Assembly (NCBI GenBank): GCA_964482135.1
Contig: CAYZWF010000006.1
Coordinates: forward strand, 4,438-68,437
Direction of reading: 5' to 3'
DNA: 64,000 nucleotides
From: an uncultured Rhodospirillaceae bacterium
Lineage (GTDB): Bacteria > Pseudomonadota > Alphaproteobacteria > UBA11136
A program made the translations under genes and the position numbers. The first letter of the stretch is position 1, and each line of letters begins with the position of its first letter. This document shows positions 4,238 through 54,366 of this stretch, one piece after another. The notes beneath the pieces are model-generated. The model saw only the letters and a program-made list of their open reading frames with translations, did not search any database and was not told where the DNA came from.

Positions 4238-4242
4238 ATTCC

Positions 4243-6054: not shown

Positions 6055-6072
6055 AGGATAGCTTCTCTCACC

Positions 6073-7464: not shown

Positions 7465-7483
7465 CGGGGGGAAATATCCGGGA

Positions 7484-8005: not shown

Positions 8006-8015
8006 ACGGGCAGCC

Positions 8016-16144: not shown

Positions 16145-16168
16145 ATAAAAATAAGACGGAGACAAAGC

Positions 16169-17371
16169 ATGTCCGATAAAGAATTATTACAAAATAAAAC
16201 GGAAAAAGAGGTTCTTAGAGTCTACCAAAAAGTAAACCCCTCCACATACCCGATCGAAGAAGACCCCAAGGAATACCGGCGCAGAATGGATTTCATGGAG
16301 GACCTGTTTCTCCATCGCCTTAATTTTCCACCTAAAATGTTCAAGGATGCGACCCTTCTCGACTTCGGAACAGGGACCGGAGAGAACTCGCTGTTTTATC
16401 TGGTGGCAGGGGCTTCGTGTACCTTTGTGGAAATGAACCAGCTGGCCTGCCAGAGAGCCGAAAAATTATTTAAACAATTTTCTTCAGAGTCATCAAAATG
16501 GGAAATCGTCAACGAGTCCCTTTTCGATTTTAACAGCGACGAATCATACGACATCGTTATTTCTAACGGTGTTATTCACACCACATCGGACAAGGAAAAG
16601 GCGATTGAAATAAAGTCCAAGCACTTGAAAAACGGGGGTTTCCTCGTTCTTGGCATCGCCAATTCCGCGGGCTCATTCCAACGCAACCTGCAACGGGCCA
16701 TTCTCTATCATTTCGCCACAAGTGACGAAGATATTGCCTCTCTTGCCGAGGAACTGTTCGCCGACCATTTGGATCGTGCCGAAAAATTCAGTAGCCGGGA
16801 CAGGAAGGCGATCATATACGATTCTTACGTAAATCCTAAACTCGATACTCCGAGCGTATCGGAAATTTTGAATTGGTTTTCAAAGAACGGCCTGGTCATG
16901 TATTCGTCATGGCCGCCCATCATCCCGGCGATTCTTGGTGATCCGGCGGACAGAAAACCGTTGCCGCTCGAAGACTTTCCCAGCCTGATGAGCCTTGCGG
17001 AAATTATCTATTTAAGTCATTCCGACGATGATGCGATCGTCTTGGCCGAAACCGAAAAAGGAATGGAGCCGGCCATTAAATCGTTTAAGGAGATTGTCGA
17101 TTTGCTGAGTGATGTGACACCCAATGGGCGCATCGAAGTTGATGATGCCATTAAAAAAATCGATACATTCCAGGCGGGAGAAAAAAGATTAGATCCGTAT
17201 CTTCCTCATATGGACAGGCTGACGAACGCTCTGGAAGAAACCAAATGTATTATTGAGGCCCTCAAAAAAGATGACATCAATGGTGTCAAAAAATGCATCG
17301 AAGATACAAAAGTGCTTTTTAAGGGCACGCACGGATTGGGAATGAATTGGTATATCGGGTATAAAGCTTGA
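16169..17371 (+). CDS. SAM-dependent methyltransferase with an uncharacterised C-terminal domain (copy 2)
   Basis: 400 aa. Identical to copy 1 except for the last residues (…GMSWYIGYKR versus …GMNWYIGYKA). Confidence 0.75.
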   Translation: MSDKELLQNKTEKEVLRVYQKVNPSTYPIEEDPKEYRRRMDFMEDLFLHRLNFPPKMFKDATLLDFGTGTGENSLFYLVAGASCTFVEMNQLACQRAEKLFKQFSSESSKWEIVNESLFDFNSDESYDIVISNGVIHTTSDKEKAIEIKSKHLKNGGFLVLGIANSAGSFQRNLQRAILYHFATSDEDIASLAEELFADHLDRAEKFSSRDRKAIIYDSYVNPKLDTPSVSEILNWFSKNGLVMYSSWPPIIPAILGDPADRKPLPLEDFPSLMSLAEIIYLSHSDDDAIVLAETEKGMEPAIKSFKEIVDLLSDVTPNGRIEVDDAIKKIDTFQAGEKRLDPYLPHMDRLTNALEETKCIIEALKKDDINGVKKCIEDTKVLFKGTHGLGMNWYIGYKA

Positions 17372-21677: not shown

Positions 21678-23381
21678 CTATCTCAGCGATACGCGTTGCG
21701 ATTCCACATACAACGCATCAATTGTTCCGGTTAATAAAATTTTTAATGCGTCGTCTACGGCACAGATTATCGGTTCCTCATGAGTATTGAAGGATGTGTT
21801 GATCAACGCATATTCGCCGGTTTTTTCGAACCATTGACTGACCACAGCCCACATGAAGGGATCGTTGTCTTTTCTAATGACATGGGGACGCGCAGTGCCA
21901 TCAACATGAGTTACCGCGGAACACTTGCTGGAGAATTCATCCGTACAATTTACGGTAGATGTCATGAAATTAAATGTTATGTCGGATTCCAGAAACCCTA
22001 TGAAGGCCTTTTTGGCCAGTTCAGTGGTGGTAACGGGAGCAAAAGGCATGAACTCCGTTCTGTGCAATCGCTCGTTAAGCAATTTGTTGCAGGATTGGTC
22101 TGACGTTTTATAAAGAATTGATCTATTGCACAGCGCCCGGGGGCCGAATTCCATCCTTCCTCGAACGAGTCCGACAACCTTGCCAGAGATCAGGTCTTCA
22201 ACCAATTCGCCAACGGTGTTTTCAGGCTGTTCAACCGTTATTTTTTGTAGGACGTCATCTGGCTGTTTGTTGATCTCATCCACGTCTATGGACGGCCCGA
22301 GATATACATGGGTCATGGGAGAGATTTTCAATCCCGCCGAATGTTGAGCATAAGCGGCAGCGCCAAGACAAAGGCCACCGTCACCCATTTGTGGCTGTAT
22401 AAACATCTGTTTTATGTGTGGCAGTTCTTTCAGGGTTTGATTGGCTTTAACATTGCCGAAAATACCGCCCGCGCATACTAGTGGAATGTCCTTGAGCTCA
22501 TATTTTTCACAGACGTGAACGACGATTTTACAGAGCAAATCTTCCAGGTGTTGTTGGGCCGCCGCGGCAATATCCTCTCTTGAATAGCGCGAGATCTCTT
22601 TTTGTAGGGCATCACTGTAGTTCGTATAAAAAGGCCGATATAAGTCACCAAGTTTGGCTTTCAGTTCTCCATCTTCGAAATCGATCATCCCCTGCATGAG
22701 TCCGATGGCATTCTTGGGGTCTCCATGAGCCGCCAGTCCCGTTATTTTTCCCTCATGCCGGCAGGGTTTGAACCCCAGCAGGCCAGTAATGCGCCCATAA
22801 AAAAAGCCCAGACTGTCCGAAGATGTGGAAGCGTATATTTTACGCATAACCGGCTCAGAGGCCGTGTCATAAAGCCAACACGTTAATGACTCGTAATCAC
22901 CCCTTGCATCCGCCGTTAAGACGAGAGCCCTCTGATAAGGGCTCAACAAACAGGCGCTGTAGGCATGTGCCTCATGATGGAAACATGTAATGAGGGGGGG
23001 GTGTCCCTGGGCGGGAAAATGTTCATCGAACCAACCCTTAAATTCATTTTTATTGGCTTCGTCTCTTTCTGTTTCGATGCGTATTCTTTCTGAAAAAATA
23101 TCAAGTGCAGTTTTATCTTCTTCAGCCAACTCAACAGCACGCGCTGCGTAAATCGGAAGCAGCTCTTCCTGGAAGTCTTTCCCCCAGGCATATGCCACCT
23201 GATCGATATCTGTAAGATTTACTCCAGCCTCTCTGAGCACGTATTCAATCGAACGAATGGGAAAGGATTCGTCCATTTTTATTCTAGAAAATCGTTCTTC
23301 GCTCGCAGCGGCTATCAACTCACCATCTTTGAAGCAGCAGGCAGAGGCGGTTTCTGCATTACAGATACCTAATGTTATCAC
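21678..23381 (-). CDS. NodU/CmcH-family carbamoyltransferase
   Basis: N-terminus 'ILGICNAETASACCFKDGELIAAASEERFSRIK' (carbamoyltransferase N domain). C-terminal transferase domain 'VNTSFNTHEEPI'. About 45% GC. The start was moved to the GTG at 23381 (or the TTG at 23396), because the track's start at 23468 overlaps the tRNA. Confidence 0.75.
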   Translation of the reverse strand: MITLGICNAETASACCFKDGELIAAASEERFSRIKMDESFPIRSIEYVLREAGVNLTDIDQVAYAWGKDFQEELLPIYAARAVELAEEDKTALDIFSERIRIETERDEANKNEFKGWFDEHFPAQGHPPLITCFHHEAHAYSACLLSPYQRALVLTADARGDYESLTCWLYDTASEPVMRKIYASTSSDSLGFFYGRITGLLGFKPCRHEGKITGLAAHGDPKNAIGLMQGMIDFEDGELKAKLGDLYRPFYTNYSDALQKEISRYSREDIAAAAQQHLEDLLCKIVVHVCEKYELKDIPLVCAGGIFGNVKANQTLKELPHIKQMFIQPQMGDGGLCLGAAAYAQHSAGLKISPMTHVYLGPSIDVDEINKQPDDVLQKITVEQPENTVGELVEDLISGKVVGLVRGRMEFGPRALCNRSILYKTSDQSCNKLLNERLHRTEFMPFAPVTTTELAKKAFIGFLESDITFNFMTSTVNCTDEFSSKCSAVTHVDGTARPHVIRKDNDPFMWAVVSQWFEKTGEYALINTSFNTHEEPIICAVDDALKILLTGTIDALYVESQRVSLR

Positions 23382-23421
23382 CTGAAAAACCCTCAATCGT
23401 TGATTGTCGATATTTGATAAA

Positions 23422-23511
23422 TGGCGGTGGGGGTGGGATTCGAACCCACGGTACCCGCAAGGGCACAACGGTTTTCGAGACCGCCCCGTTCAACCACTCC
23501 GGCACCCCACC
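23422..23511 (-). tRNA. tRNA-Ser (anticodon CGA)
   Basis: The reverse complement gives GGTGGGG…GGTCTCGAAAACC…GTGGGTTCGAATCCCACCCCCACCGCCA. It has a 7-bp acceptor stem, a long variable arm, a T-loop GGTTCGAATCC and 3' CCA. Length 90 nt. Confidence 0.85.
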
Positions 23512-29272: not shown

Positions 29273-29734
29273 GTGCGTCTGTGGATTGCTGCCGTGGGCC
29301 GTGGGGGCCGCGCCGTCAGCAGCGGCGTCTATGAAGACTATGCGCGGCGGCTGAACTGGCCGCTGGAATTGCGCGAGGTGGACCTGCGCCAGACCCTGTC
29401 GCCGGAAAAACGAAAAATCCGTGAGTCCGAAAAGCTGTTGGCCGCGGTGCCCGAAGGGGCGGTGCTGGTGGCCCTGGATGAAAAGGGCAAGGCCCTTTCC
29501 AGCCGCGAGTTTGCGCTAAAGCTGGGGGGCTGGCGCGACGACGGCGTTGCCGATCTTGCCTTTCTCATCGGTGGCGCCGACGGGCTCGACCCAAGCATAA
29601 GAAAAAAGGCGGCGCTGGTGCTGTCCCTCGGCGCCATGACCTGGCCCCATCTTCTGGTGCGGGGCATGCTCGCCGAACAGCTGTACCGGGCGCAGTCCAT
29701 CCTCACCGGCCACCCCTATCACCGTGAGGGATAA
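29273..29734 (+). CDS. rlmH: 23S rRNA (pseudouridine1915-N3)-methyltransferase RlmH
   Basis: 154 aa SPOUT-fold protein with 'VALDEKGKALSSREFA' and 'FLIGGADGL'. GTG start at V55 of the track ORF. Confidence 0.85.
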   Translation: MRLWIAAVGRGGRAVSSGVYEDYARRLNWPLELREVDLRQTLSPEKRKIRESEKLLAAVPEGAVLVALDEKGKALSSREFALKLGGWRDDGVADLAFLIGGADGLDPSIRKKAALVLSLGAMTWPHLLVRGMLAEQLYRAQSILTGHPYHREG

Positions 29735-29752
29735 GGGAGTAAAAAACGGTCC

Positions 29753-30550
29753 ATGAAGCCGGAAATGTTTAGCATACATGCCGATGTGGAAGCCCGGCAC
29801 TGGTGGTTCGAGGCGCGCCGCCGCATCCTGTTTCCCCTCATTCGCCAGGTCATGGCGGGGCAGGAGGGCGAGATCATCGTCGATGTGGGTTGCGGCACGG
29901 GAGGGACCGTCGCCGCCCTCTGTAGAGAATACGATTGTGTGGGTATCGACGATTCGAAGCTGGCCATCGAAACCGCCGAGGCCGCCTATCCCCAGGCCAC
30001 CCATCCCCGGGGCGGCTTTCGCCTTGGCCGTATGCCCGATGACCTTCGCGACCTGGCTCCCCGCACGGGGCTCTATCTGCTCATGGATGTTCTCGAGCAT
30101 GTGGAGGACGACCGCGCCTTTCTTGCCGATCTCATCGCCCTGGCCCGGCCCGGCGCGCATATTCTGATTACGGTTCCCGCCGGCCCGCAGCTGTGGAGCC
30201 GCCACGACATTACCGCCGGGCATCTGCGCCGCTATGAACACGATACCCTTACATCCCTGTGGCGGAACCAAGGCGTTTCGCCGCGTCTGGTGACCTTCTT
30301 CAACAGCCGTCTCTATCCCTTGATCCGGCTGGCTCGATACGCGGGCAACCGCTTTGGGGCCTCCTGCGGACGCGAGGGCAGCGATTTCCATGTGCCGCCA
30401 CCGCCCGTTAATGCGCTTTTGGAGGGCATATTCGCCGGCGAAGGAGGCCGCATCCTCTCCCGCCTCGACCAGCCGGAAACGGCGGCCTATGAACACGGGG
30501 TCAGCCTGTTGGCGCTGATCCGATGTGCGGAATTGAACCGCTCCCCGTGA
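29753..30550 (+). CDS. Class I SAM-dependent methyltransferase
   Basis: 'IVDVGCGTGG' motif I. 265 aa. First gene of the sugar-tailoring cluster. Confidence 0.8.
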   Translation: MKPEMFSIHADVEARHWWFEARRRILFPLIRQVMAGQEGEIIVDVGCGTGGTVAALCREYDCVGIDDSKLAIETAEAAYPQATHPRGGFRLGRMPDDLRDLAPRTGLYLLMDVLEHVEDDRAFLADLIALARPGAHILITVPAGPQLWSRHDITAGHLRRYEHDTLTSLWRNQGVSPRLVTFFNSRLYPLIRLARYAGNRFGASCGREGSDFHVPPPPVNALLEGIFAGEGGRILSRLDQPETAAYEHGVSLLALIRCAELNRSP

Positions 30551-30617
30551 AATGCCATAAAAGACTTCTTGTTTCCCGCCCTCCGTTTCAGAAATTTTTC
30601 CCCATGGATATGAAGAT

Positions 30618-31052
30618 ATGGATGTGAAGATTGATCCGGTAACAGAAGAAGAAAAGGCAAGATGGCCCAAGGAGGTTATCGTCCCCCTGCTGGATCCCTT
30701 TGTGGATGCCCGTGGCGCTATCCAGCCGCTGGTGGACGAGGACATGAAGAGCTGTGTTCTCATTTCCTCCAAGAAAGGCACGGTGCGGGCCAACCACTAT
30801 CACAAGACTGACTGGCATTACTGTTACGTGCTGGTGGGAAAGATCGAATATTACCACCGCCCCACGGGAAGCGACGCGGCGCCAGAGAAAGTGATGGTGG
30901 AGGCGGGGCAGATGTTCTTCACGCCGCCCATGGTGGATCATTCCATGGTCTTTCCCGAGGAAGCGGTCTTCATCACCTGGGGGCGCAATTCCCGCCTTCA
31001 GGAGGTCTATGAAGCCGACGTGGTGCGTATCGATCCCATCGAGCCGTCATGA
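30618..31052 (+). CDS. Small cupin, WxcM/FdtA-like sugar 3,4-ketoisomerase (tentative; an RmlC-type epimerase is not excluded)
   Basis: 144 aa with 'HYHKTDWHYCYVLVGKIEY' cupin motifs. Size and context match NDP-keto-sugar isomerases. Confidence 0.5.
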   Translation: MDVKIDPVTEEEKARWPKEVIVPLLDPFVDARGAIQPLVDEDMKSCVLISSKKGTVRANHYHKTDWHYCYVLVGKIEYYHRPTGSDAAPEKVMVEAGQMFFTPPMVDHSMVFPEEAVFITWGRNSRLQEVYEADVVRIDPIEPS

Positions 31053-32302
31053 ACGATGCCGCCGGCGCTTGCCGCCGTCGCGCCACATGCAGACTGTGCG
31101 ACAGTGGCGACCTCTCCCTTGTCCTGTCTTTAACGCCGACGCCGCCGGCAAACGCCTTCGTCACCGCCGCCGGTCTGGACACGTCCCAGGAATGTTTCCC
31201 GCTCGATCTGCATCTCTGTGGCGAGTGCGGCCATCTCCAGCTTCTCCACGTGGTGGACCCGTCCGTGCTGTTCGCCGATTACGTCTATGTGTCGGGAACC
31301 TCACCTTCCTTCGTCGCCCATTTCGAGAATTATGCCGCAAGCATTATGGAAACCTACCAGCCGCCGCCCGGCGCCCTGGTGGTGGACATCGGCTCCAACG
31401 ACGGCACCCTGCTGCGCTTCTTTCAACAAGCGGGAATGGCCGTTCAGGGCGTCGATCCGGCGCGTGATATTGCGCGTGCCGCGTCGGAGGCGGGAATCGA
31501 GACCCTCAACGCCTTTTTCGATGCCGCTCTGGCCGCGCAAATCCGCGAGGATAAAGGCGCCGCCGCCGTGGTCACGGCCAATAACGTGTTCGCCCATATT
31601 GATGATCTGGCGGGCGTGGTAGCCGGCGTGCGGGTGCTTCTCGACGACGGTGGCGTGTTCGTCTTCGAGGTTTCCTATCTTGCCGACGTGCTGGAGAAGA
31701 CCCTGTTCGACACCATCTATCACGAGCATCTTTCCTATCACGGGGTGGCGCCGCTGGTGTCTTTCTTCGCCGCCAACGGTATGGAACTCATCGCCGCCGA
31801 GCGGGTGGATACCCATGGCGGCAGCCTGCGCGGCGTGGCCCAGCTTGCCGGTGGCGCCCGCCCGGTGGCGGCATCGGTGGCGGCCTGTCTGGATTTGGAG
31901 GATCGCCTTGGTTTGGGGAAGCCTGAGACCTTTCATGAATTTGCGCGGCGCATTGACGCCCTCAAGACATCTTTGCGCGACCTGTTGGCGGGGCTGAAGG
32001 CCGAGGGGCGGTCCATCTCCGGTTACGGCGCGCCGGCCAAGGCCACCACCCTGATGTATCATTTCGGCCTCGGCCCCGATATCATCGACTTCATCGTCGA
32101 TGACAGCCCCTTGAAACAGGGCCTTTATTCACCCGGCCTGCATGTTCCGGTGCTCCCCTCGGGGGCCATAACCGAACACAGGCCCGATTATCTGTTAATC
32201 CTGGCGTGGAATTTTGCCCAACCCATCATGGCCAATAATTCGGCATTTCATGAGGCGGGGGGGCGTTTCATCATTCCCGTTCCCGAACTGGAAGTAGTGT
32301 AA
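31049..32302 (+). CDS. NDP-hexose/pentose C-methyltransferase (TylCIII/NovU-like, with N-terminal zinc ribbon)
   Basis: CxxC…CxxC ('CRLCDSG…CGECGH'), then class I MT motif 'VVDIGSNDG' and C-terminal domain 'YHEHLSYH'. Start overlaps the previous stop (ATGA). Confidence 0.75.
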   Translation: MNDAAGACRRRATCRLCDSGDLSLVLSLTPTPPANAFVTAAGLDTSQECFPLDLHLCGECGHLQLLHVVDPSVLFADYVYVSGTSPSFVAHFENYAASIMETYQPPPGALVVDIGSNDGTLLRFFQQAGMAVQGVDPARDIARAASEAGIETLNAFFDAALAAQIREDKGAAAVVTANNVFAHIDDLAGVVAGVRVLLDDGGVFVFEVSYLADVLEKTLFDTIYHEHLSYHGVAPLVSFFAANGMELIAAERVDTHGGSLRGVAQLAGGARPVAASVAACLDLEDRLGLGKPETFHEFARRIDALKTSLRDLLAGLKAEGRSISGYGAPAKATTLMYHFGLGPDIIDFIVDDSPLKQGLYSPGLHVPVLPSGAITEHRPDYLLILAWNFAQPIMANNSAFHEAGGRFIIPVPELEVV

Positions 32303-32305
32303 AAT

Positions 32306-33364
32306 ATGAAGGGTTCTTATCTCGACAGCGATATCGCGGAAATTGCCGGCCGTCTCGGCGAACGGGCGGACATGCTTGCCGGCAAGACGGTGCTTTTGAC
32401 CGGCGCGCGGGGGTTTCTCGGCCGTTACTTCACCAGGGTTTTCGCCCATCTCAACGAACACAGGCTGGACAAACCCTGTTCCGTGATCGCGCTCGACAAC
32501 CTGATCACCTCCGGCGTGGCCGGGGAAACCATCCCCGATATTCCCAATTTCGAATTTCTCCGCCATGACGTGACCGAACCCTTCACGCCTGATGGCAAGG
32601 TGGATTTCGTGGTTCACGCGGCGGGTATCGCCAGCCCCTTCCATTATCGCGCCCACCCCATGGAAACGCTGGAAGTGGCTATCTGGGGCACCCGCAACAT
32701 GCTGGATGTGGCGCGCCGTGACGACGCCAGCTTTACCTTCTTTTCATCAAGCGAGATTTATGGTGACCCCGATCCCCGCCACGTGCCGTCGCCGGAAAGC
32801 TATCGCGGTAACGTGGCGAGCCAGGGGCCGCGCGCCTGTTACGACGAGAGCAAACGCGTCGGCGAGACCCTGTGCTACATCTATCACGAGTATCACGGGG
32901 TCCATACCAACATCATCCGCCCCTTCAACGTATTTGGCCCCGGCATGCAGAAGACCGACTACCGGGTGTTGCCTAATTTCGCCGCCCATATTCAGGAAGG
33001 CGAGCCCCTTAACGTCTATGGCAGCGGCACCCAGACCCGCACCTTCTGTTACATCACCGACGCCATGGTGGGATTTCTGCTCACCGTTCTCTCCGGCGTG
33101 CCTGGCGAAACCTATAATATCGGTAATCCCAAGCCAGAGATTTCCATGCTCGATCTGGTGGGGCGGGTGACGAACGTTCTCGGGCGCGAGATACCCCACA
33201 ATGTGATCGAGCATCCCGACAGCTATCCCGCCGACGAGCCCAACCGCCGCTGTCCCGATATCCGCAAGGCGGAACTCCAGCTCGACTACACGCCGAAGGT
33301 GGAGCTGGATGACGGCCTGTCGCGTTTTTTCACCTGGGCGGACAAATTTTATGCGGGGCCCTAG
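32306..33364 (+). CDS. NAD-dependent epimerase/dehydratase, UDP-glucuronate decarboxylase (UXS/ArnA-C)-like
   Basis: 'VLLTGARGFLG' and catalytic 'YDESKRVGE' (Y-x3-K). Extended SDR of 352 aa. Confidence 0.8.
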   Translation: MKGSYLDSDIAEIAGRLGERADMLAGKTVLLTGARGFLGRYFTRVFAHLNEHRLDKPCSVIALDNLITSGVAGETIPDIPNFEFLRHDVTEPFTPDGKVDFVVHAAGIASPFHYRAHPMETLEVAIWGTRNMLDVARRDDASFTFFSSSEIYGDPDPRHVPSPESYRGNVASQGPRACYDESKRVGETLCYIYHEYHGVHTNIIRPFNVFGPGMQKTDYRVLPNFAAHIQEGEPLNVYGSGTQTRTFCYITDAMVGFLLTVLSGVPGETYNIGNPKPEISMLDLVGRVTNVLGREIPHNVIEHPDSYPADEPNRRCPDIRKAELQLDYTPKVELDDGLSRFFTWADKFYAGP

Positions 33365-33396
33365 GGGTCACAGAGGCCTGCGGGACGGAGGCAGGG

Positions 33397-34344
33397 ATGC
33401 CTGAGTTGCGGCTTGGCCTGATCGGCGCCGGGCGCTGGGGCCGCGTCTACATGAATACACTGGACGACATGGCGGGTGTGACCTTAAGCGCGCTCGCCAG
33501 TTCCAACCCCCACAGCCGTGATTTGGCGGGCGAAGATGTGGCCGTCCACGAGGACTGGCGGGATCTTATCAAGGCCGGCGGCGTGGACGGGATCATCGTC
33601 GCCACGCCGCCCGCGACCCATGCCGAGATCGTCGGCGCGGCGCTGGAAGCCGGGCTGCCGGTTCTGGTGGAAAAACCGCTGACCCTGGACGTGGACGAGG
33701 CCCGGGCGCTTTGCGATCTGGCCCAAGCAAGGGACGGCCTGGTGATGGTGGATCATATCCATCTCTTCAGCCCCGCCTTTCGTGCCCTGAAACGCGAAGC
33801 AGCCAAGCTGGGCCCGCTGCGCCGCATGGAATCCGAGGCCGGCAGCCAGGGTCCCTTCCGCAAGGCGACGCCGGTTTTGTGGGATTGGGGCGCCCATGAT
33901 ATCTCCATGTGCCTCGATCTCATGGGTGAAGCGCCCTCGGAGATCTCCGCGCGTTGTCTGGAGATGCGGGAAACCGGGGAAGGCTCCGGCGCGGTCTTCG
34001 ATCTGCGCCTTGAATTTGCCGATGAAACAACAGCGGGGATACGCATCGGCAATCTGCTGCCCGGAAAACGACGGCGTTTCTGTGCCGCCTTCGATGCCGG
34101 GATTCTGGTTTATGACGATCTGGCGGCGGACAAGCTGACCTTGGTTCCCACATCCCCCTCTCCAGAGGCCGAAATACGCGCCATCGCCGTGACGCCCGAC
34201 CTGCCCCTGACCTGCGCGGTCAGGGAATTCACGGAAGCTATTACCTCCGGTTCGCGCTCGCGGGAGAGCCTGCAATTGGGACTTTCGGTGGTGGAGACCC
34301 TGGCTAGGTGCGAGGCGGCGCTGGAGGGGTCACAGCCGGAATAA
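33397..34344 (+). CDS. Gfo/Idh/MocA-family NAD(P)-dependent oxidoreductase
   Basis: 'LRLGLIGAGRWGRVY' Rossmann N-terminus and 'EKPLTL' motif. Confidence 0.8.
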   Translation: MPELRLGLIGAGRWGRVYMNTLDDMAGVTLSALASSNPHSRDLAGEDVAVHEDWRDLIKAGGVDGIIVATPPATHAEIVGAALEAGLPVLVEKPLTLDVDEARALCDLAQARDGLVMVDHIHLFSPAFRALKREAAKLGPLRRMESEAGSQGPFRKATPVLWDWGAHDISMCLDLMGEAPSEISARCLEMRETGEGSGAVFDLRLEFADETTAGIRIGNLLPGKRRRFCAAFDAGILVYDDLAADKLTLVPTSPSPEAEIRAIAVTPDLPLTCAVREFTEAITSGSRSRESLQLGLSVVETLARCEAALEGSQPE

Positions 34345-34530
34345 AGGTCAGGGCTATGGCGTTGATATGCCCCGCCGTTTTCCCTAAAGTAGCGGCGCCG
34401 GATCAGGGCTCGATTTAAAGTTTTTTGTGTGGTTTTCAGGCGTTTCCGGACCAATATTCAGATATATTACGGAAGAAACTCAGATCGGGGGCTGTGTCGG
34501 GACCGCCTCCGGAATTTACGAGTAGGGTGC

Positions 34531-35988
34531 ATGAAGGTTCTTCTTATATTCAAGGATTCCGTTGCCGTGGAACGCATGGCGATTTGCTATATCAGCTCAG
34601 CGCTGAAGGCGGCCGGAAATGATGTAAAGCTCTGGATTATGAACGTGAATCCGCCTGAGCGGCTTCACGAATATATGTCGGAATACAGGCCAGATATTGT
34701 CGGCTATTCCTCCATGACCGGGGAACATATCCCGCTGGCGGCCTTGAATCGGGAACTGAAGGAACAATACGATTTCTTCTCCGTATTCGGCGGGCCTCAC
34801 GCCACATTCGTTCCCGATTTCATCGAAGAAGAGGTCTCGGTGGATGCCGCATGCACCGGTGAAGGCGATCTCGTGTTTCCGGAATTATGCCGAAGAATGG
34901 AGGCGGGCGAGGAATACTGGCTGACTCCCACGTTCGACGTTCGCTATGAGGGAAAGATACATAGAAACCTCTTGGGTGATCTGACGCCCACCCTTGAGAC
35001 GCTTGATGATCCCGACCGCCAGATTCTCTATGACGCCGATCCCAGGCTGGGCAAGCTGGGAACCAAGTATTTCATGGCCGCCCGCGGTTGCCCCTACAAA
35101 TGCTCGTACTGTTTCAATGTGAAATACAACGAAAACTACAAGGGCAAGGGAAAGGTGGTGCGTTGCCGCACCCCGCGTCAGGTGATTGATGAAATCAAGT
35201 GGGTCATGGAGCGCTACCCCTTAGACCATGTGTCGTTCCTCGACGATCTGTTCATTCTCAAGCCCAAGGAATGGCTGGTGGAATTTTCGCGGTTGTTCAA
35301 GGAAGAAGTCGGTCTGCAATGGTCTTGCACGGTGCGGGCCAACACCGCCAATCTCGGCGGTGAGACCACCATTTCCATGCTCAGCGATTCGGGGCTTTCC
35401 TGGGTGTGGATGGGCGTGGAATGCGGTGACCAGAAGGTGGCCAATGAAATTCTGGTGAGAGACCTCACCAATGACGAGATCACCCAGGCCACGCAGCTTT
35501 TGCACAAATACAATGTGGGGACCATCGCCCAGAATATTTTAGGCTTGCCGGTTCCCGATCCCATCAAGACGGATTTGGTCACACTGGACTTCAATATCGA
35601 CCTTCGGCCCTCTCTGGGGCATCCGTCCATTCTCTACCCCTATCCGGGATCACCCATCGAGACCTATTCCCGCGAACACGGTTATCTGGAAGGCGAGCCC
35701 GAGTATATGGAAACGACGAAACGTTCTTCCATGCTGAAGTTCTCCTCAGAGAATGACAAACATAAGATCGAGAACCTGCACAAGCTTTTCGGCATTATTG
35801 TCCGCTTCCCCGTCCTTCGGCCCTATACGGAATTCCTGATCAGCCTGCCTCTAACGCCTCTGTACCGGGCTGTTTTCTACCTGTGGTACGGGTATTGTTT
35901 CAAAATCAAACTGGCCAAGATCAAGAGGCTCCATAAGGAAATTCCCTATTTTACGGGCCTCTTTTTCAGGATGCTGGCCAAGTCGTAA
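34531..35988 (+). CDS. B12-binding domain radical SAM enzyme (class B radical SAM methyltransferase-like)
   Basis: N-terminal B12-binding-like fold, then a 'CPYKCSYC' CxxxCxxC cluster. AT-rich, about 50% GC. Start is M35 of the track ORF. Confidence 0.75.
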   Translation: MKVLLIFKDSVAVERMAICYISSALKAAGNDVKLWIMNVNPPERLHEYMSEYRPDIVGYSSMTGEHIPLAALNRELKEQYDFFSVFGGPHATFVPDFIEEEVSVDAACTGEGDLVFPELCRRMEAGEEYWLTPTFDVRYEGKIHRNLLGDLTPTLETLDDPDRQILYDADPRLGKLGTKYFMAARGCPYKCSYCFNVKYNENYKGKGKVVRCRTPRQVIDEIKWVMERYPLDHVSFLDDLFILKPKEWLVEFSRLFKEEVGLQWSCTVRANTANLGGETTISMLSDSGLSWVWMGVECGDQKVANEILVRDLTNDEITQATQLLHKYNVGTIAQNILGLPVPDPIKTDLVTLDFNIDLRPSLGHPSILYPYPGSPIETYSREHGYLEGEPEYMETTKRSSMLKFSSENDKHKIENLHKLFGIIVRFPVLRPYTEFLISLPLTPLYRAVFYLWYGYCFKIKLAKIKRLHKEIPYFTGLFFRMLAKS

Positions 35989-36105
35989 ACGCCTCCCTCT
36001 CCCGGTCTCCCCCATTGGGGCGACGGTGTGGTCCTTGCCCCCCCGCCTGTGATCAGGTACTAATTCTGGCGCACCAGCACCGCCTGAATCAAAGGGCTTT
36101 ACGCC

Positions 36106-37089
36106 ATGCCTTCTTCCTTTGCCGGGAAATCCGTCGTCATCCTTACCGCACAGTATAATGACTGGGTTTCCCTCGGCCATCTGCTTCCCCTCATCGACGA
36201 AAATCTAGCTCCCCTGGGGGTAGAGGCCCGGGTAGTGGTGGTGGATGATGGCTCCATTGATTCCGATGGCAAGGAATTGCTGGGCGGTCTTTCGCTCAAG
36301 GCGATCGAGTCCATCGAGGAAGTGGTGCTGGGGGATAACCAGGGGAATCAGCGGGCCATGGCCATTGGCCTGGCTCATGTGGCGGAGCATTACGACTGTG
36401 ACTATCTGTTGCTCATTGACAGCGATTTTGAAGACAACCCCGAATATATCCCGCAACTGCTCGAGGCCTGCCGTTCCGGTGGGGACAAGGAAATCATGTT
36501 TGCCGAACGCTCCAAGCGCTCGGAAGGGATGCTCTTTCTCTTTTTCTACAAGCTTTACCAGAAAATCTATAAAGCCTTCACCCGGCACAATATCGCCGTG
36601 GGTAATTTCAGCGTAGTGCCGGGGCATCTGATCCGCCGTCTCGCCCATGTGGGGGAGTTGTGGAACCATTTGCCCGCCAGCATCATGCGTTCCGGGCTGC
36701 CGTTTTCTTCCATTCCCACCCTGCGCGGAAAACGCCTCTACGGTAAAAGCAGCATGAATCTGGTGCGGCTGGTGGTCCATGCTTTCAGCGCATTTACCAT
36801 TTTCGCCGATGTATTTGCGGTGCGGTTGATCCTGTGGACGCTGGGGCTGGTATTTTTATTTGTTCTGGGCGGCGTGGTTCTGGTGGGGCTCAAATTCGGC
36901 GCCGGGGTGGCGGCTCTGGGCTGGCCTTCGCAGATGGTGGGACTGCTTCTTGTTATTCTGCTCCAGGTTCTCGGCATGTCCGTGATTCTGTTATTTCTGG
37001 CCTTGTCCATGCGTCTGAAGCCGCCCATGATTCCGGCCCATGATTACGGAAAATTCATCTACGAGGTGAACCGGCTCTACCCGTCATGA
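36106..37089 (+). CDS. GT2 polyprenyl-phosphate sugar synthase (ArnC/GtrB/CsbB/DPM1-like) with C-terminal TM anchor
   Basis: 'VVVVDDGSIDS', 'LLLIDSDFEDNPEYIP' and two C-terminal TM helices. Confidence 0.8.
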   Translation: MPSSFAGKSVVILTAQYNDWVSLGHLLPLIDENLAPLGVEARVVVVDDGSIDSDGKELLGGLSLKAIESIEEVVLGDNQGNQRAMAIGLAHVAEHYDCDYLLLIDSDFEDNPEYIPQLLEACRSGGDKEIMFAERSKRSEGMLFLFFYKLYQKIYKAFTRHNIAVGNFSVVPGHLIRRLAHVGELWNHLPASIMRSGLPFSSIPTLRGKRLYGKSSMNLVRLVVHAFSAFTIFADVFAVRLILWTLGLVFLFVLGGVVLVGLKFGAGVAALGWPSQMVGLLLVILLQVLGMSVILLFLALSMRLKPPMIPAHDYGKFIYEVNRLYPS

Positions 37090-39191
37090 TGACCCTTATT
37101 TCCTCGGCGTGGCGCGGCAATCCGGTTCTGTTTGCCGGTCTTGTCTGGCTTACGGTTGAATTTTTTATTGCCGGCCCCTTTTCCTTTTTTCGTATAGGGG
37201 AAAATGCCGACGCCTATATCCCCCCCTTCATGGCCTATGGGGCGTCTTTCCTTGAGGGCGCCTATTGGTACCCTGCCATGGCGGGGGGCACCGACCGCCT
37301 TGCCCTGGGATTTTTCGGCGGGCTGGACACGTTTCTGTTCTGGCTGTTGCCGGGCTGGCTTGCCGCCCAAATATTCGTGGTGGCCCAGTTCGTTCTGGGC
37401 GGTGGCGCCACCTATCTCATCTGCCGCAAGCATCTCAATCTGGGGATAGAGGCCGCCACCTTCGCGGGGCTGGCCTTCGCTCTGGAGGCGTCTCCGGGAA
37501 TGCACGAACACAACACCGTGATGTTTTTCCCGGTGCTGATCTGGGCCATCAGCCGGGGCCTCGATGAAAGCCTCCCCGTTCTGCGCCGCGCCGCCTGGCT
37601 GGTGGTGGTTCCCCTGGCCTATGGCATGTGCACCCTGGCGGCCTATCTCTATCATTTTCCCATAGTAAGCGTTGTGTTCTGGTTCGCCGTGGTCGCGCCA
37701 CCACGTTCGTTGCGGCGGTGGGGGCTGGTGGCCGGGGCGTGTTTCCTGGCTTTGCTGCCGCGCCTTCAGGACGCCATTGCCCTGGCGCTGCACGCTCCCT
37801 TTTCACATCGTATCCACTGGAACATGGAGATTTTCCAGCCCCCCGATATGGCGGAGTTTTTTGCTCATGTGTTCAACTTTCCCCTGTCCACGGAGTTGAA
37901 TCTTCTGTTGGTGGCTTTGGCATTTTGCGCTTGGACGCTGAGGCGCCATGGAGGAGATTTCAACGATGGCGGATTGTGGCGGGTCTCGGCCGTTTTCCTT
38001 TTTCTCTGGTTGGCGCCGCCGCTTTTGGAATATCTGCGGCCGTTGTTGCTGTTGGTCTTCCCCTTTGCCGAGGCCTTCCAGATCAAACGTATCGCCCTGA
38101 CCATTCCCTTTTTCGCCGCACTCATGGGGGGGCTGGGCCTCGAAGTCCTGAGAGGCGCGCTGAAGGGGCGCTCATTCACGCTGCCGCGGCTGGGCGCCGT
38201 GGGAGCCGGAAAACTGGCCTATGTGGCGGCGCTGGGAGTGCTTGCGGTGCTCTCTCTCGAGGTCAAATACAGTCATGCCCTTGAGTGGGTGAGATATGGG
38301 AACTACGTAAACAACTTCTCCCGGCGCGCCGCAGAGGACTTTGCCGCCGAGCGCCCCGTGGCCGATGATCCCTACCGTATCGCCGCCTACCAGCTCTATC
38401 CCGTCCTTTTTCAGGCCTATGGGCTGGAGACGGCGGGGGGCTATATGAACATGTATTCCCGGCGCTATATGGAATTCTGGAACCGGGTGATTGAAAAACG
38501 GGAGCGCCAGCGAGGCGTGGAAGGGGAGTTTCTGAGTTGGGGCAGCCGCGTCAATCTCAGCGCCGACTTGCACGAGCCCCGCCTCAAGCTGGGCGATCAT
38601 TACAACTTGTCCCTGCTCTCTTTGGCTAATGTGCGCTATCTGTTCGCCCGCGACCAATTGTTGGACCAACAGTTTTCCGCCGTGGTTTCGGCGGACAAGC
38701 CCTGGAACACGATGGATAACCGGGAAAAGGCCATGGTTCATGTGGCTGCCAATTTCGGCGGTGAGAATCCGCTCAATATTTACCGTAACGCGGACGCCTT
38801 CCCCCGCTTCTTCCTGGTTCCCTCTGTGCGGGAATTCGCCGACGAATCCACCCTTCTCGATGCCATGGCCGGGGCCGACACCGGGGCCTTGCGCAAGGAT
38901 GTTTTCGTGGAAAAGGGCTGGCTGAAGGAAGATGTGGCGGCAAATCTGGGTTTTGCCGAGGGTGCCGTGGATCTGGTGTCGTACAAGCCCGACCGTATCG
39001 AGCTTGATCTGCGCGCCGACGGGCCGGCCATTCTCGCCGTCGCCAATTCCTACAGCCCCTACTGGCGGGTTCGCGTGGATGGCGAGGCGGCGGAAATTTT
39101 CCCCGCCTATCACACCTTCTGGGGCGTGGTGGTGGCGGCGGGTGCGCACCATGTCGTATTTGACTATGTTCCCCCCTACCGCCTTTGGTAG
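37086..39191 (+). CDS. YfhO-family polytopic membrane glycosyltransferase
   Basis: 701 aa. The N-terminal half has >10 TM helices. The C-terminal domain ends in the YfhO-typical 'NSYSPYWRVRVDGEAAEIFPAYHTFWGVVVAAGAHHVVFDYVPP'. Start overlaps the GT2 stop. Confidence 0.7.
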   Translation: MMTLISSAWRGNPVLFAGLVWLTVEFFIAGPFSFFRIGENADAYIPPFMAYGASFLEGAYWYPAMAGGTDRLALGFFGGLDTFLFWLLPGWLAAQIFVVAQFVLGGGATYLICRKHLNLGIEAATFAGLAFALEASPGMHEHNTVMFFPVLIWAISRGLDESLPVLRRAAWLVVVPLAYGMCTLAAYLYHFPIVSVVFWFAVVAPPRSLRRWGLVAGACFLALLPRLQDAIALALHAPFSHRIHWNMEIFQPPDMAEFFAHVFNFPLSTELNLLLVALAFCAWTLRRHGGDFNDGGLWRVSAVFLFLWLAPPLLEYLRPLLLLVFPFAEAFQIKRIALTIPFFAALMGGLGLEVLRGALKGRSFTLPRLGAVGAGKLAYVAALGVLAVLSLEVKYSHALEWVRYGNYVNNFSRRAAEDFAAERPVADDPYRIAAYQLYPVLFQAYGLETAGGYMNMYSRRYMEFWNRVIEKRERQRGVEGEFLSWGSRVNLSADLHEPRLKLGDHYNLSLLSLANVRYLFARDQLLDQQFSAVVSADKPWNTMDNREKAMVHVAANFGGENPLNIYRNADAFPRFFLVPSVREFADESTLLDAMAGADTGALRKDVFVEKGWLKEDVAANLGFAEGAVDLVSYKPDRIELDLRADGPAILAVANSYSPYWRVRVDGEAAEIFPAYHTFWGVVVAAGAHHVVFDYVPPYRLW

Positions 39192-39344
39192 AATGGCTGG
39201 GTTCGTTCCCTTAAAGGTGCCCAAGAGGACACGAGGAGTCCAAAAATCTTATCGCGCAAGTGGCTTTGTTCTTATGTGGGAACGAAATTTATGCTCTATA
39301 TAGTGGTTACCCGCCCGTAGGGTCCTCTAGATGTTGATTCAGTA

Positions 39345-40922
39345 ATGAGCGACACAAACCCACCACGTCCCGTGGTTCTCTGCATCCTTGATGGCTGGGG
39401 AGTGCGCGAGGATGCCCAGGACAATGCCGTGGCCCAGGCCAGCACCCCGGTCTGGGACGGTCTCGTGGCAGGCTGCCCCCATGGTACCCTGGAGGCGTCC
39501 GAGGAAAGCGTCGGCCTGCCCCAGGGCCAGTTCGGCAATTCCGAAGTGGGACATATGAATATCGGCGCCGGACGGGTGCTTTATCAGGATTTGCTGCGTA
39601 TTGATGCCGCCTGTGAGGACGGTTCCCTGGGCGATATCCCCACGCTTGTGGGTTTCATCCAGAAACTCAAGGAAAGCGGTGGCGTCTGCCACCTCATGGG
39701 CCTGGCATCTCCCGGCGGGGTGCATGCCCACCAGGCCCATATTGTGGCCCTGGCCCGCGCCGTGACGGAGGCCGGCGTGCCGGTGGCGGTGCATGCCTTT
39801 CTCGATGGCCGCGACACGCCGCCGCTCACCGCCAAGGACTATATCTCGAAGCTGATGGCCGACACCAAGGACTGTCCGGGCCTTCGTTTCGGCACCGTGT
39901 GCGGGCGCTTTTACGCCATGGACCGCGATAACCGCTGGGATCGCGTGGCGGCGGCCTATGAAGCCATGGTGGAGGGCAAGGGCAAACGGGTGACGGACGT
40001 GATTTCCGCCATCACCGCCAGTTACGGCGTGTCGGTGACCGATGAATTCGTGGTGCCCACGGTGATCGGGGACTATGACGGCATGAAGGAGGGCGACGGC
40101 ATCCTGATGGCCAATTACCGCGCCGACCGGGTGCGCGAAATTCTGACGGCGCTGCTCGACCCTTATTTCGAGAGTTTCGAGAGAGCGCGGATGGCGCGTT
40201 TCGCCGCGGCGCTGGGCATGACCGAATATTCTCCGCGCCTCAATAAATATCTCGACGCCATGTTCTCCACCCCCCATTACGAGAACATCATGGCCTGGGT
40301 GGTCTGTTGCGCAGGGCTAAAACAGCTGCGCATCGCCGAGACCGAGAAATACGCCCATGTGACTTATTTCTTCAACGTCAGCAACGAACAGCAGTTCGAG
40401 GGCGAGGACCGTATCCTGGTGCCGTCACCCCGCGTGCCCACCTATGACGTACAGCCGGAAATGGCCGCGCCAGAGGTGACGCGGCAGCTGATCGAGGCCA
40501 TAGAGGGCGGGGAATACGCCTTCATTGTGGTCAATTTCGCCAATCCCGACATGGTTGGCCATACCGGCTCCATGTCCGCGGCCATACGGGCGGTGGAAAC
40601 CATCGATAACTGCCTCGGGCGGCTGGTTTCCGCTCTCGGGAAGGCCGGTGGCGCCATGCTGGTTACCGCCGATCACGGTAATATCGAACTCATGCGAGAC
40701 CCGGAAACGGGCCAGCCCCATACGTCCCATACCTGTAATCCGGTGCCCAGCGTTCTGGTGGGCGCCCCCGATGATGTCACCTCGCTGCGGCATGGCTGTT
40801 TGGCCGATATTGCACCCACATTGCTGGCGCTGATGTGGCTGAAACATCCCGAGGAGATGACGGGTCACTCCCTTCTCGTCACCGCCTCGGAGCGTACCGG
40901 GGCCAAGGCGGCCTCGGCCTGA
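39345..40922 (+). CDS. gpmI: 2,3-bisphosphoglycerate-independent phosphoglycerate mutase
   Basis: 'VVLCILDGWG', 'SEVGHMNIGAGR' and 'TADHGN' motifs. 525 aa. Confidence 0.9.
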   Translation: MSDTNPPRPVVLCILDGWGVREDAQDNAVAQASTPVWDGLVAGCPHGTLEASEESVGLPQGQFGNSEVGHMNIGAGRVLYQDLLRIDAACEDGSLGDIPTLVGFIQKLKESGGVCHLMGLASPGGVHAHQAHIVALARAVTEAGVPVAVHAFLDGRDTPPLTAKDYISKLMADTKDCPGLRFGTVCGRFYAMDRDNRWDRVAAAYEAMVEGKGKRVTDVISAITASYGVSVTDEFVVPTVIGDYDGMKEGDGILMANYRADRVREILTALLDPYFESFERARMARFAAALGMTEYSPRLNKYLDAMFSTPHYENIMAWVVCCAGLKQLRIAETEKYAHVTYFFNVSNEQQFEGEDRILVPSPRVPTYDVQPEMAAPEVTRQLIEAIEGGEYAFIVVNFANPDMVGHTGSMSAAIRAVETIDNCLGRLVSALGKAGGAMLVTADHGNIELMRDPETGQPHTSHTCNPVPSVLVGAPDDVTSLRHGCLADIAPTLLALMWLKHPEEMTGHSLLVTASERTGAKAASA

Positions 40923-54278: not shown

Positions 54279-54366
54279 GGTCTACACTCTATTCAAGAGT
54301 TGCGGCGGGTCAAAGGGGGCCATGCCATGACCGGGACATACAGTCTCACCTATCAGAGAAGGATCA

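Follow-up and report, generated by a model that had tools for sequence, protein, structure and literature searches.

CsbB/GtcA/YfhO glycosylation systems are established (PMC8035078), and three-component systems are a general route for periplasmic O-antigen decoration (PMC11127046). Precedents for unusual sugar chemistry come from antibiotic pathways, where the UXS-family enzyme EvdS6 releases UDP-4-keto-xylose as a proposed feed to a branched pentose (PMC10338323) and the cobalamin radical S-adenosylmethionine (SAM) enzyme GenD1 C-methylates ring carbon C-4'' of the gentamicin A sugar (PMC4340712). Here we describe an island of eight genes, g1 to g8, that brings relatives of such enzymes together in the genome of an uncultured Rhodospirillaceae bacterium (Alphaproteobacteria, GTDB lineage UBA11136). 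The window analysed is a stretch of 64,000 nucleotides from GenBank assembly GCA_964482135.1 (contig CAYZWF010000006.1, positions 4,438 to 68,437 of the forward strand); coordinates below are positions in this window unless another locus, denoted by an L number, is named. We consider it probable, at about 60%, that the island encodes a strain-variable decoration of a surface glycan in which a conserved sugar cassette (g2 to g5) is coupled to a lipid-carrier delivery module (g7 and g8).

The eight open reading frames (ORFs) are co-directional on the forward strand and fill the junction between rlmH and gpmI at 29753–39191. An initial annotation, made from the DNA letters and their ORFs, had described them as partly overlapping, and the ORF listing bears this out: they are tightly packed, with 4-nt overlaps at g2/g3 and g7/g8 and other intergenic gaps of 3–186 nt, of which the largest (186 nt and 117 nt) border g6. 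The left boundary is rlmH, encoding a SPOUT methyltransferase (29273–29734, +; PF02590, 143.9 bits), and the right boundary is gpmI (39345–40922, +; PF01676 and PF06415). Upstream the order is proB-proA-nadD-rsfS-rlmH and downstream it is gpmI-envC-ctpA-yibQ followed by a NUDIX gene, which is the core order given earlier with its last gene, named rppH there, seen here as NUDIX. The ORF of g6 opens at 34429, and its likely start is the ATG at 34531 according to gene calls on an identical JGI metagenome contig. Consensus scans for promoters and terminators across the cluster are at or near background, with terminator-like sites inside coding sequence and one promoter-like site (34362–34390) ahead of g6. 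Two long antisense ORFs were observed, one of 425 aa over rlmH and g1 (29516–30793, −) and one of 350 aa over g8 (38172–39224, −). Such ORFs are expected because the DNA has a GC content of about 60%, and no gene is called at either on the identical contig.

The initial annotation treated the cluster as an insertion and proposed comparing the rlmH–gpmI interval across genomes, and this comparison upholds the insertion. Scanning 185,579 species genomes with gpmI gave 80 loci. The best come from alphaproteobacterial metagenome-assembled genomes (MAGs) and reach at most 61% identity; the scanned species genomes therefore include no close sequenced relative. In 42 of these loci, mostly alphaproteobacterial, rlmH precedes gpmI in the same orientation, and the median gap is 138 nt; 29 of the 42 gaps are shorter than 300 nt and 37 shorter than 1 kb, which leaves five of 1 kb or more. 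Homologues of g1–g8 at E ≤ 1e-8 occur in none of the 80 gpmI loci. Most relatives have gpmI directly next to rlmH. Within its clade the cluster does recur at this site: contigs obtained independently from metagenomes and MAGs (L001, L084, L085/L086, L094, L095 and L096) carry it with protein identities of 71–97%, and this recurrence indicates that the genes are real. One Rhodospirillaceae MAG (L037) carries an unrelated 8-kb insert at the same junction (2000–10000 of that locus) with genes for MarR, a TctCBA tricarboxylate transporter, a metallo-beta-lactamase-fold protein, the large and small subunits of aconitase, and a phosphoenolpyruvate (PEP)-mutase/isocitrate-lyase-like protein. The presence of a different insert there marks the junction as a recurrent insertion point.

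Recent horizontal transfer was considered for the island and rejected. The GC content at third codon positions is 0.68–0.75 for g1–g8 and 0.66–0.78 for the flanks, neither direct nor inverted repeats are conspicuous on either side of the island, the window contains no second copy of the rlmH 3' end, and the island region has no tRNA or other Rfam element. With no mark of recent mobile-element insertion, the island is old within its clade.

Within the cassette, g3 (31049–32302, +) encodes a protein in which zinc-ribbon (PF08421, 66.8 bits), central SAM (PF13489) and Methyltransf_14 (PF08484, 186 bits) domains are all present and whose translation has a CxxC...CxxC pattern. It aligns over its full length with the 3-C-methyltransferase MtmC of D-mycarose biosynthesis (4rv9, 336 bits) and with TcaB9 and deposited chains named 'sugar 3-C-methyl transferase' (about 260 bits). 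By homology, g3 is a sugar C-methyltransferase of the TylC3/TcaB9/MtmC family, in agreement with the zinc-ribbon nucleoside diphosphate (NDP)-sugar C-methyltransferase named at the outset. The next gene, g4 (32306–33364, +), encodes an extended short-chain dehydrogenase/reductase (SDR) of UXS type. It matches human UXS1 at 212 bits over residues 27–342, with the next SDR at 100 bits and ArnA structures at 63 bits; of the UXS/ArnA-C-like decarboxylase first suggested, the UXS part stands and the ArnA part does not. Motifs of g4 correspond closely to those of UXS1 (SSSEIYGDP to STSEVYGDP, GPRACYDESKR to GPRACYDEGKR, and NVFGPGM to NTFGPRM), and with UXS-family active-site residues in place g4 is a putative UDP-glucuronate (UDP-GlcA) decarboxylase. 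Residues 145–148 (32738–32749) carry an S-S-E triad in place of T-S-E, and S-S-E occurs in all eight cassette SDRs examined (the window, L084, L085, L087, L089, L093, L099 and L101). T-S-E is usual in UXS, ArnA and most decarboxylases, and in EvdS6 replacing this Thr by Ala eliminates the reductive half-reaction, so that the keto product remains (PMC10338323). S-S-E is a possible marker of a keto-releasing subfamily; serine keeps the hydroxyl, so we treat the triad as a lead.

The remaining cassette genes encode a cupin and an oxidoreductase. The small cupin g2 (30618–31052, +) is the most conserved gene of the cassette. Cupin_2 (28 bits) is its sole above-threshold Pfam match, Polysacc_synt_C being sub-threshold and FdtA (PF05523) not matched, and no PDB sequence matches it at E ≤ 0.1. 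Foldseek comparison of its predicted model returns RmlC-like epimerases, FdtA/QdtA and the CapF cupin, all at E of about 1e-4; FdtA/QdtA have the highest TM-scores (0.56–0.57), a small, model-based margin given equal E-values for the RmlC-like proteins. The earlier description of g2 as FdtA-like fails for sequence; for the fold, FdtA-type ketoisomerases come nearest by TM-score, too narrowly to set them apart from RmlC-type epimerases. The modelled fold makes g2 a probable nucleotide-keto-sugar cupin, either an isomerase or an epimerase. The product of g5 (33397–34344, +) belongs to the GFO/IDH/MocA family of NAD(P) oxidoreductases (GFO; PF01408, 77 bits). It matches an uncharacterised structural-genomics GFO protein (3c1a) at 247 bits, an archaeal UDP-N-acetylglucosamine (UDP-GlcNAc) 3-dehydrogenase model at 92 bits against a cut-off of 450, and the 'sugar 3-ketoreductase' 3rbv at 35 bits. 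Its translation has the EKP motif (LVEKPL). The family includes sugar C-3 redox enzymes, and g5 is a putative sugar ketoreductase.

Two further methyltransferase-type genes accompany the cassette. The product of g6 (34531–35988, +) has an N-terminal B12-binding domain (PF02310, 58 bits) and a radical SAM domain (PF04055, 44 bits) with the CX3CX2C motif CPYKCSYC; domain content and motif place it among class B cobalamin-binding radical SAM enzymes, and it is a putative C-methyltransferase. No subfamily model reaches its cut-off for g6, which has weak matches to HpnJ, BchE, TokK and AprD4 and best PDB scores of 38–39 bits. A hopanoid or tetrapyrrole role was rejected for g6, as the corresponding matches score 76–84 bits against cut-offs of 480–580 and no such genes lie nearby. 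The class I SAM-dependent methyltransferase g1 (29753–30550, +; PF13489, 47 bits) has generic methyltransferase matches only in PDB and NCBIfam. It is 81–89% identical in L084, L085, L094 and L095, and L098, L101 and L103 have methyltransferases with 26–30% identity to g1 in the vicinity of g6-type radical SAM genes. It probably methylates an O or N atom of a sugar or glycan. For g1, g5 and g6 the Pfam assignments agree with the SAM methyltransferase, Gfo/Idh/MocA reductase and B12-radical SAM enzyme of the initial annotation.

The delivery module consists of g7 and g8. The glycosyltransferase family 2 (GT2) protein g7 (36106–37089, +) gives full-length alignments to GtrB (5ekp; residues 11–298 to 29–311, 55.6 bits) and to ArnC (50 bits), and it has two or three predicted C-terminal transmembrane (TM) helices in residues 242–306. 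Among named NCBIfam models ArnC scores best, with 47.9 bits where the cut-off is 529. Judged by its architecture, g7 fits a putative polyprenyl-phosphate-monosaccharide synthase, as had been predicted. The 701-aa polytopic protein g8 (37086–39191, +) passes the Pfam cut-offs for DUF6044 (PF19510, 49.6 bits) and YfhO (PF09586, 31.3 bits), with the YfhO match covering the C-terminal 70 residues alone. Hydropathy indicates six to ten hydrophobic segments in residues 1–395, followed by a soluble C-terminal domain of about 300 aa. In a structural model of g8 (AlphaFold2, 11 sequences; pLDDT 62), the sole significant Foldseek match is AftD (E 1e-5), a GT-C arabinofuranosyltransferase, and the next matches, EmbA/B/C, are non-significant (E 0.03–0.2). 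The g8 family comprises 336 representatives at E ≤ 1e-30 (50%-identity clusters) and has near-invariant acidic residues at positions 39 and 70 (E39 and D70), just after the first predicted TM segment. The YfhO membrane transferase named at first is thus borne out at the level of DUF6044/YfhO family thresholds, and its possible GT-C fold comes from a poor model; we refer to g8 as a putative GT-C transferase.

Relatives in the clade show how the island varies. All eight genes are present at 81–97% identity in L085/L086 and L094, together with five extra genes between rlmH and g1 that encode a second B12-radical SAM protein, a glyoxalase-fold protein, a PP-binding protein, an Antibiotic_NAT acetyltransferase and a further methyltransferase. 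In L084 the cluster has 71–91% identity and lacks g6, which marks g6 as accessory because the cluster is otherwise intact. A further radical SAM gene, in opposite orientation, is present in L095. Within the cluster g8 evolves fastest, with 85% identity where its neighbours have 89–97%. The island behaves like a flexible, strain-variable glycotype island, ordinary of its sort. Strain variation at one chromosomal junction fits the usual picture of such islands, which are commonly attributed to phage and grazer pressure. The boundary with rlmH differs among these relatives as well. In L085 (6290–6357) and L094 (5110–5200) a 35–70 nt copy of the rlmH 3' end lies directly upstream of g1, and in L085 an intact rlmH lies 5 kb further upstream; as the extra gene block is bracketed by the duplicated rlmH end, this looks like a recombination scar at the insertion point. 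In L084 (3252–3464) and L095 (406–466) no rlmH lies between rsfS and g1, and the cluster follows rsfS directly, in contrast to the window and the 42 other loci that have rlmH at this place.

The most divergent arrangement is that of L096 (2869–7662), which lacks g7 and has a YfhO-like gene followed by genes for a DegT aminotransferase, a 248-aa soluble GT2 and a hexapeptide acetyltransferase. Immediately ahead of gpmI lies a 34-aa piece of a YfhO C-terminus that resembles the scar of a replacement. On its predicted enzymes, the L096 island implies an N-acetylated amino-sugar version of the decoration, and the DegT and acetyltransferase genes indicate that a keto-sugar intermediate is available. 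An aminotransferase also belongs to Arn, as ArnB, and L096 could on that account be read as favouring an Arn-like modification of lipid A or core that tunes surface charge and cationic peptide resistance. Such a reading would draw on the shared logic of a UDP-GlcA decarboxylase, a GT2 acting on undecaprenyl phosphate (Und-P) and a GT-C enzyme, and on ArnC being the best named match of g7. We regard it as quite improbable. Genes for an aminotransferase, a formyltransferase and a deformylase are all missing from the window cluster, which should yield a neutral product, the L096 acetyltransferase would neutralise the amine, g4 is UXS-type (the ArnA model gives it 58.3 bits, with a cut-off of 777), g8 falls outside the ArnT/PMT_2 family, and the cassette lies elsewhere in O-antigen-type, not lipid A, loci. 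Of the Arn-like logic put forward initially, the analogy survives, and membership in the ArnA, ArnB and ArnT families fails.

Searches with g5 and g2 gathered cassette loci from other lineages. The order cupin, C-methyltransferase, UXS-like SDR, GFO is conserved in alphaproteobacterial (Rhodospirillales) and gammaproteobacterial loci, and identities to the window in L087, L089, L091, L093, L099 and L101 are 64–78% for the cupin, 59–67% for the C-methyltransferase, 65–71% for the SDR and 50–51% for the GFO protein. The cupin family has 3160 members in the searched metagenome collection. In at least two lineages (L087/L088 and L089/L090) the cassette lies within O-antigen-type loci with Wzy_C, WbpL-like, GT4, WbpM-like and AsnB genes. 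A betaproteobacterial locus (L092, 1184–7226) has the cupin, C-methyltransferase and GFO genes without the UXS-like SDR; its neighbours are divergent rmlD/C/A/B-type genes (Pfam-based) and lipopolysaccharide (LPS) core genes for a GT9 heptosyltransferase and a Kdo transferase. The absence of the SDR beside rmlB/A/C/D suggests that the SDR is an interchangeable generator of 4-keto sugars and the GFO protein a dedicated reductase. L092 would thereby imply a 6-deoxyhexose version of the tailoring cassette.

Transferases of the delivery type recur beside the cassette. PMT_2-type GT-C proteins with 42–47% mutual identity lie next to it in L087, L089 and L099, a 693-aa multi-TM protein with no Pfam match takes the GT-C position in L093, and a DUF6044 protein 30% identical to g8 adjoins the cassette in an unrelated genomic context in L091. 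In L082 a YfhO-like protein (26% identical) lies beside C-methyltransferase, DegT and NTP transferase genes. The cassette has a GT-C-like protein as its neighbour in five or more independent contexts, and these proteins fall into two families (PMT_2 and DUF6044/YfhO). Short soluble GT2s without a TM helix directly adjoin the cassette in L087, L089 and L093, and in NCBIfam they score best against AglJ, ArnC, Dol-P-hexose transferase and PpgS, all far below equivalog cut-offs. The occurrence of the cassette beside polyprenyl-phosphate-type GT2s and GT-C proteins of two families gives independent support to a lipid-carrier logic. In L091 (11692–13307) the SDR is split into ORFs of 122 and 252 aa with no GFO gene after it, perhaps through decay or an assembly frameshift; the DUF6044 gene and an MBOAT/AlgX-type O-acetylation pair follow the split SDR.

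The O-antigen-type contexts can also be read in another way. In a Leloir route, a cytoplasmic GT2 would add the UDP-sugar to a repeat unit linked to undecaprenyl diphosphate, with g8 and the PMT_2-like proteins acting otherwise, in polymerisation, ligation or modification, and no Und-P-monosaccharide would form. Such a route would suit the Wzy-dependent setting (Wzy_C, WbpL-like, GT4) of the L087/L088 and L089/L090 cassettes, the short GT2s without TM helices, the low score of every GT2 match relative to its equivalog cut-off and the lack of a flippase gene in the cluster. We nevertheless hold it to be unlikely, since g7 has the GtrB/ArnC architecture of a catalytic domain with C-terminal TM helices, aligned over its full length, and the short GT2s best match polyprenyl- and dolichyl-phosphate sugar synthases, not repeat-unit glycosyltransferases. 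The recurrence of a GT-C-like partner in so many settings argues in the same direction, as does the overlap of g7 with g8, csbB/yfhO-type pairs being typically adjacent (PMC8035078).

B12-radical SAM genes are also linked to the cassette. Four lineages with 21–23% mutual identity adjoin cassettes (L085, 1284–2960, −; L088, 4735–6255; L089, 5726–7267; and g6 in the window), which suggests on sequence divergence that such enzymes may have been recruited repeatedly and independently. Orthologues of g6 (65–69% identity) lie 2–8 kb from cassettes in L099, L101 and L103; these three loci were found via g6 and form a biased sample, and L087 and L089 were not found via g6. The linkage bears on whether g6 and g1 belong to the pathway. 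Were the cassette with g7 and g8 the whole pathway, g6 and g1 would act on another substrate, a lipid or an acceptor polymer, and share the location only. The absence of g6 from L084, its position between the two largest gaps, its GC content of 0.525 (the lowest among the cluster genes), its low-score matches to HpnJ, BchE and a 'lipid biosynthesis B12-binding/radical SAM protein' model, and the generic matches of g1 all lean that way. Against these stand the four divergent lineages that each adjoin a cassette, the nearby g6 orthologues and the precedent for sugar-ring C-methylation by a cobalamin radical SAM enzyme (PMC4340712), and we think it rather improbable that g6 and g1 are bystanders.

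Antibiotic sugar pathways are the best-known setting of TylC3-type methyltransferases, UXS-like decarboxylases and B12-radical SAM enzymes (PMC10338323; PMC4340712), and the genes might by this token belong to a secondary-metabolite or cofactor pathway, or be unrelated neighbours, with no envelope glycan involved. This is highly improbable: the cluster has no aglycone or scaffold biosynthesis gene, the cassette lies elsewhere in O-antigen-type or LPS-core contexts, the cupin, C-methyltransferase, SDR, GFO order is conserved across classes, and the GT-C partners point to an extracytoplasmic acceptor.

If the island does decorate a surface glycan, a pathway can be proposed in which we infer the substrates, order of steps, position of the methyl group, lipid intermediate and acceptor from family chemistry. 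Oxidative decarboxylation of UDP-GlcA by g4 would give UDP-4-keto-xylose, g3 would add a C-methyl branch beside the keto group, by homology most likely at C-3, g2 would isomerise or epimerise the keto-sugar, and g5 would reduce the remaining keto group to give a UDP-C-methyl-pentose. Further, optional methyl groups could be added by g6 and g1. The sugar would then be loaded onto Und-P by g7, cross the membrane in lipid-linked form through a flippase encoded elsewhere, and be transferred by g8 to an envelope glycan, which might be O-antigen, LPS core, capsule or protein. Two orders of the early steps can be drawn. In the first, the cupin would epimerise C-3, 3-C-methylation of the 4-keto sugar would follow, and the 4-keto group would then be reduced. 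In the second, the cupin would carry out 3,4-ketoisomerisation, methylation would take place beside the 3-keto group, and the GFO protein would reduce the 3-keto group; this order, which the initial annotation had put forward, fits because characterised GFO-family sugar enzymes prefer C-3. Both orders would fit the family chemistries, and a C-methyl-branched pentose is as far as the product can be defined from sequence.

Several points weigh against this interpretation. The whole pathway is read from homology and gene neighbourhood. Canonical UXS enzymes hold the 4-keto intermediate and release UDP-xylose, and release of the keto sugar is assumed here. The TylC3-family enzymes known to us use dTDP- or other NDP-4-keto-6-deoxyhexoses, and we know of none that uses a UDP-pentose. 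Each of g2 (isomerase or epimerase) and g5 (C-3 or C-4 reductase) retains both of its predicted options, and g6 is not essential to the core pathway, as it is missing in the close relative L084. The scores of g7 are low (Pfam GT2, 31 bits; ArnC model, 48 against 529), and the g8 model has low confidence (pLDDT 62, TM-score of about 0.3 to AftD), with no PDB match for g8 by its own sequence or by a 45-member family profile. Moreover, no flippase gene (GtrA-type, SMR, Wzx or MATE) and no UDP-glucose dehydrogenase gene is present in the cluster or in the parts of the window that were annotated. The cluster gaps of at most 186 nt leave no room for an extra gene of either kind, and the initial description of the pathway as complete does not stand. 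A flippase may be encoded elsewhere in the genome by analogy with Bacillus subtilis, where GtcA is encoded away from the csbB and yfhO genes (PMC8035078). The more general claim of a nucleotide sugar passed to a lipid carrier and transferred outside the cytoplasm gains from the comparative genomics, except that the B12-radical SAM step, which had been counted as part of it, is accessory.

A broader reading takes the cassette to make an undescribed UDP-C-methyl-branched pentose, widespread in proteobacterial O-antigen-type loci and installed from polyprenyl-phosphate by GT-C enzymes including DUF6044 proteins, with C-methyl groups added by B12-radical SAM enzymes recruited at least four times. 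We advance this version tentatively and would not put it at even odds. If the pathway proposed for the island is right, it would add a new nucleotide-sugar route, leading from UDP-GlcA to a C-methyl pentose and common among environmental Proteobacteria, and it would give a first functional context for the DUF6044 family, which has several hundred 50%-identity cluster representatives. Cobalamin-dependent radical SAM methylation would become a recurrent source of surface-glycan diversity and, on the broader reading, would to our knowledge have its first class B role in tailoring a primary cell-envelope glycan. The literature searched, which is thin in subscription journals, yielded no paper on DUF6044 and none in which an envelope glycan is connected with both a UXS-type decarboxylase and a TylC3-type methyltransferase; both negatives are weak evidence. 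The decoration was initially called undescribed; this agrees with the literature searched as regards the cassette and DUF6044, and is tempered by how common the cassette is in metagenomes, as its cupin homologues show. The value of the island is that of a well-delimited, widespread, uncharacterised and directly testable set of enzymes.

The window has two other features of note. A second, larger glycan-type island occupies 1–23511, upstream of obgE/proB, and ends at a tRNA gene (23425–23511, −). It includes genes for an Antibiotic_NAT acetyltransferase (340–1137, −), a NeuB-like synthase (1399–2481), a methyltransferase, a GT4, AsnB-like amidotransferases (4243–6054 and 10600–12546), a 463-aa PMT_2 GT-C protein (6073–7464), APS kinase and ATP sulfurylase (7484–9098), a pyruvate-kinase-family protein, two 400-aa methyltransferases (14942–17371), an SDR, a metallo-beta-lactamase-fold protein, KAS III, an AMP-ligase and a carbamoyltransferase (21678–23468, −). 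The sulfate-activation genes suggest a sulfated glycan. Further downstream, 52032–56045 encodes the PriA helicase (−), a DUF484 protein and a tyrosine recombinase (55062–56045; Phage_int_SAM_1 and Phage_integrase). The pairing of DUF484 with a recombinase is typical of housekeeping XerC, not of a mobile element.

Comparison with described systems shows which parts of the island are familiar. Gentamicin third-ring tailoring (GenD2/GenS2/GenN/GenD1; PMC4340712) similarly has oxidation of a ring carbon (C-3'') by a dehydrogenase, SAM methyltransferases and cobalamin radical SAM C-methylation at C-4''. Its substrate is a pseudotrisaccharide antibiotic, not a nucleotide- or lipid-linked envelope sugar, and g6 is not close to characterised class B enzymes. 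In everninomicin biosynthesis, the SDR-superfamily decarboxylase EvdS6 releases both UDP-4-keto-xylose and UDP-xylose as the proposed entry to the C-branched pentose eurekanate (PMC10338323). EvdS6 differs from the island in belonging to an actinomycete antibiotic pathway with a C-4 branch of other origin and no lipid carrier or GT-C enzyme, and it has a TDE triad where g4 has SSE. The branched deoxysugar pathways of the TylC3/MtmC/TcaB9 type, known for mycarose and proposed for Coxiella virenose (PMC3539893), share a zinc-ribbon SAM C-methyltransferase acting beside a keto group, followed by ketoreduction. They start from dTDP- or GDP-4-keto-6-deoxyhexoses made by 4,6-dehydratases and use an SDR-type reductase, whereas the island has a UDP-GlcA decarboxylase, implying a pentose, and a GFO-type reductase.

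For delivery, the closest systems are Arn, Gtr and CsbB/GtcA/YfhO. The Arn pathway for lipid A aminoarabinose (ArnA/B/C/D/T/E/F) likewise converts UDP-GlcA to a 4-keto-pentose, uses a GT2 to load Und-P and ends with a periplasmic GT-C. The island has a UXS-type decarboxylase and a transferase other than ArnT, and its tailoring would proceed by C-methylation and reduction to an uncharged product. None of the eight proteins has an ArnB (DegT) or ArnD deformylase domain, a DegT gene being present in the L096 variant only. Membership in Arn was rejected, as the ArnA, ArnB, ArnD and ArnT assignments fail and no formyltransferase domain is present, which leaves a weak resemblance to ArnC. Gtr O-antigen glucosylation (GtrA/GtrB/GtrC, among the three-component systems of PMC11127046) shares the logic of an Und-P-sugar synthase and a GT-C enzyme, with g7 full-length to GtrB, and is likewise strain-variable and a source of antigenic diversity. 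The island differs in lacking a GtrA-type flippase, in its GT-C family, in a donor that would be a modified pentose in place of glucose and in having no prophage context that could be seen. Teichoic acid glycosylation by CsbB/GtcA/YfhO in Bacillus, Staphylococcus and Listeria (PMC8035078, PMC5836110) resembles the island in its adjacent genes for a membrane-linked GT2 and a YfhO-family polytopic transferase, and in B. subtilis the flippase is encoded elsewhere, as would be the case here. Unlike those hosts, that of the island is a Gram-negative alphaproteobacterium without teichoic acids. In addition, g8 is mainly a DUF6044 protein with YfhO similarity limited to its C-terminal end, and the donor, which is UDP-GlcNAc from central metabolism in CsbB/GtcA/YfhO systems, would be the product of four to six dedicated tailoring enzymes. 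The known principle of envelope glycosylation is unchanged by these findings: the island is a variant of surface decoration, and glycan diversity is expected. What distinguishes it from the described systems is the donor pathway, the DUF6044-type transferase in a Gram-negative host and the recurrent B12-radical SAM partners.

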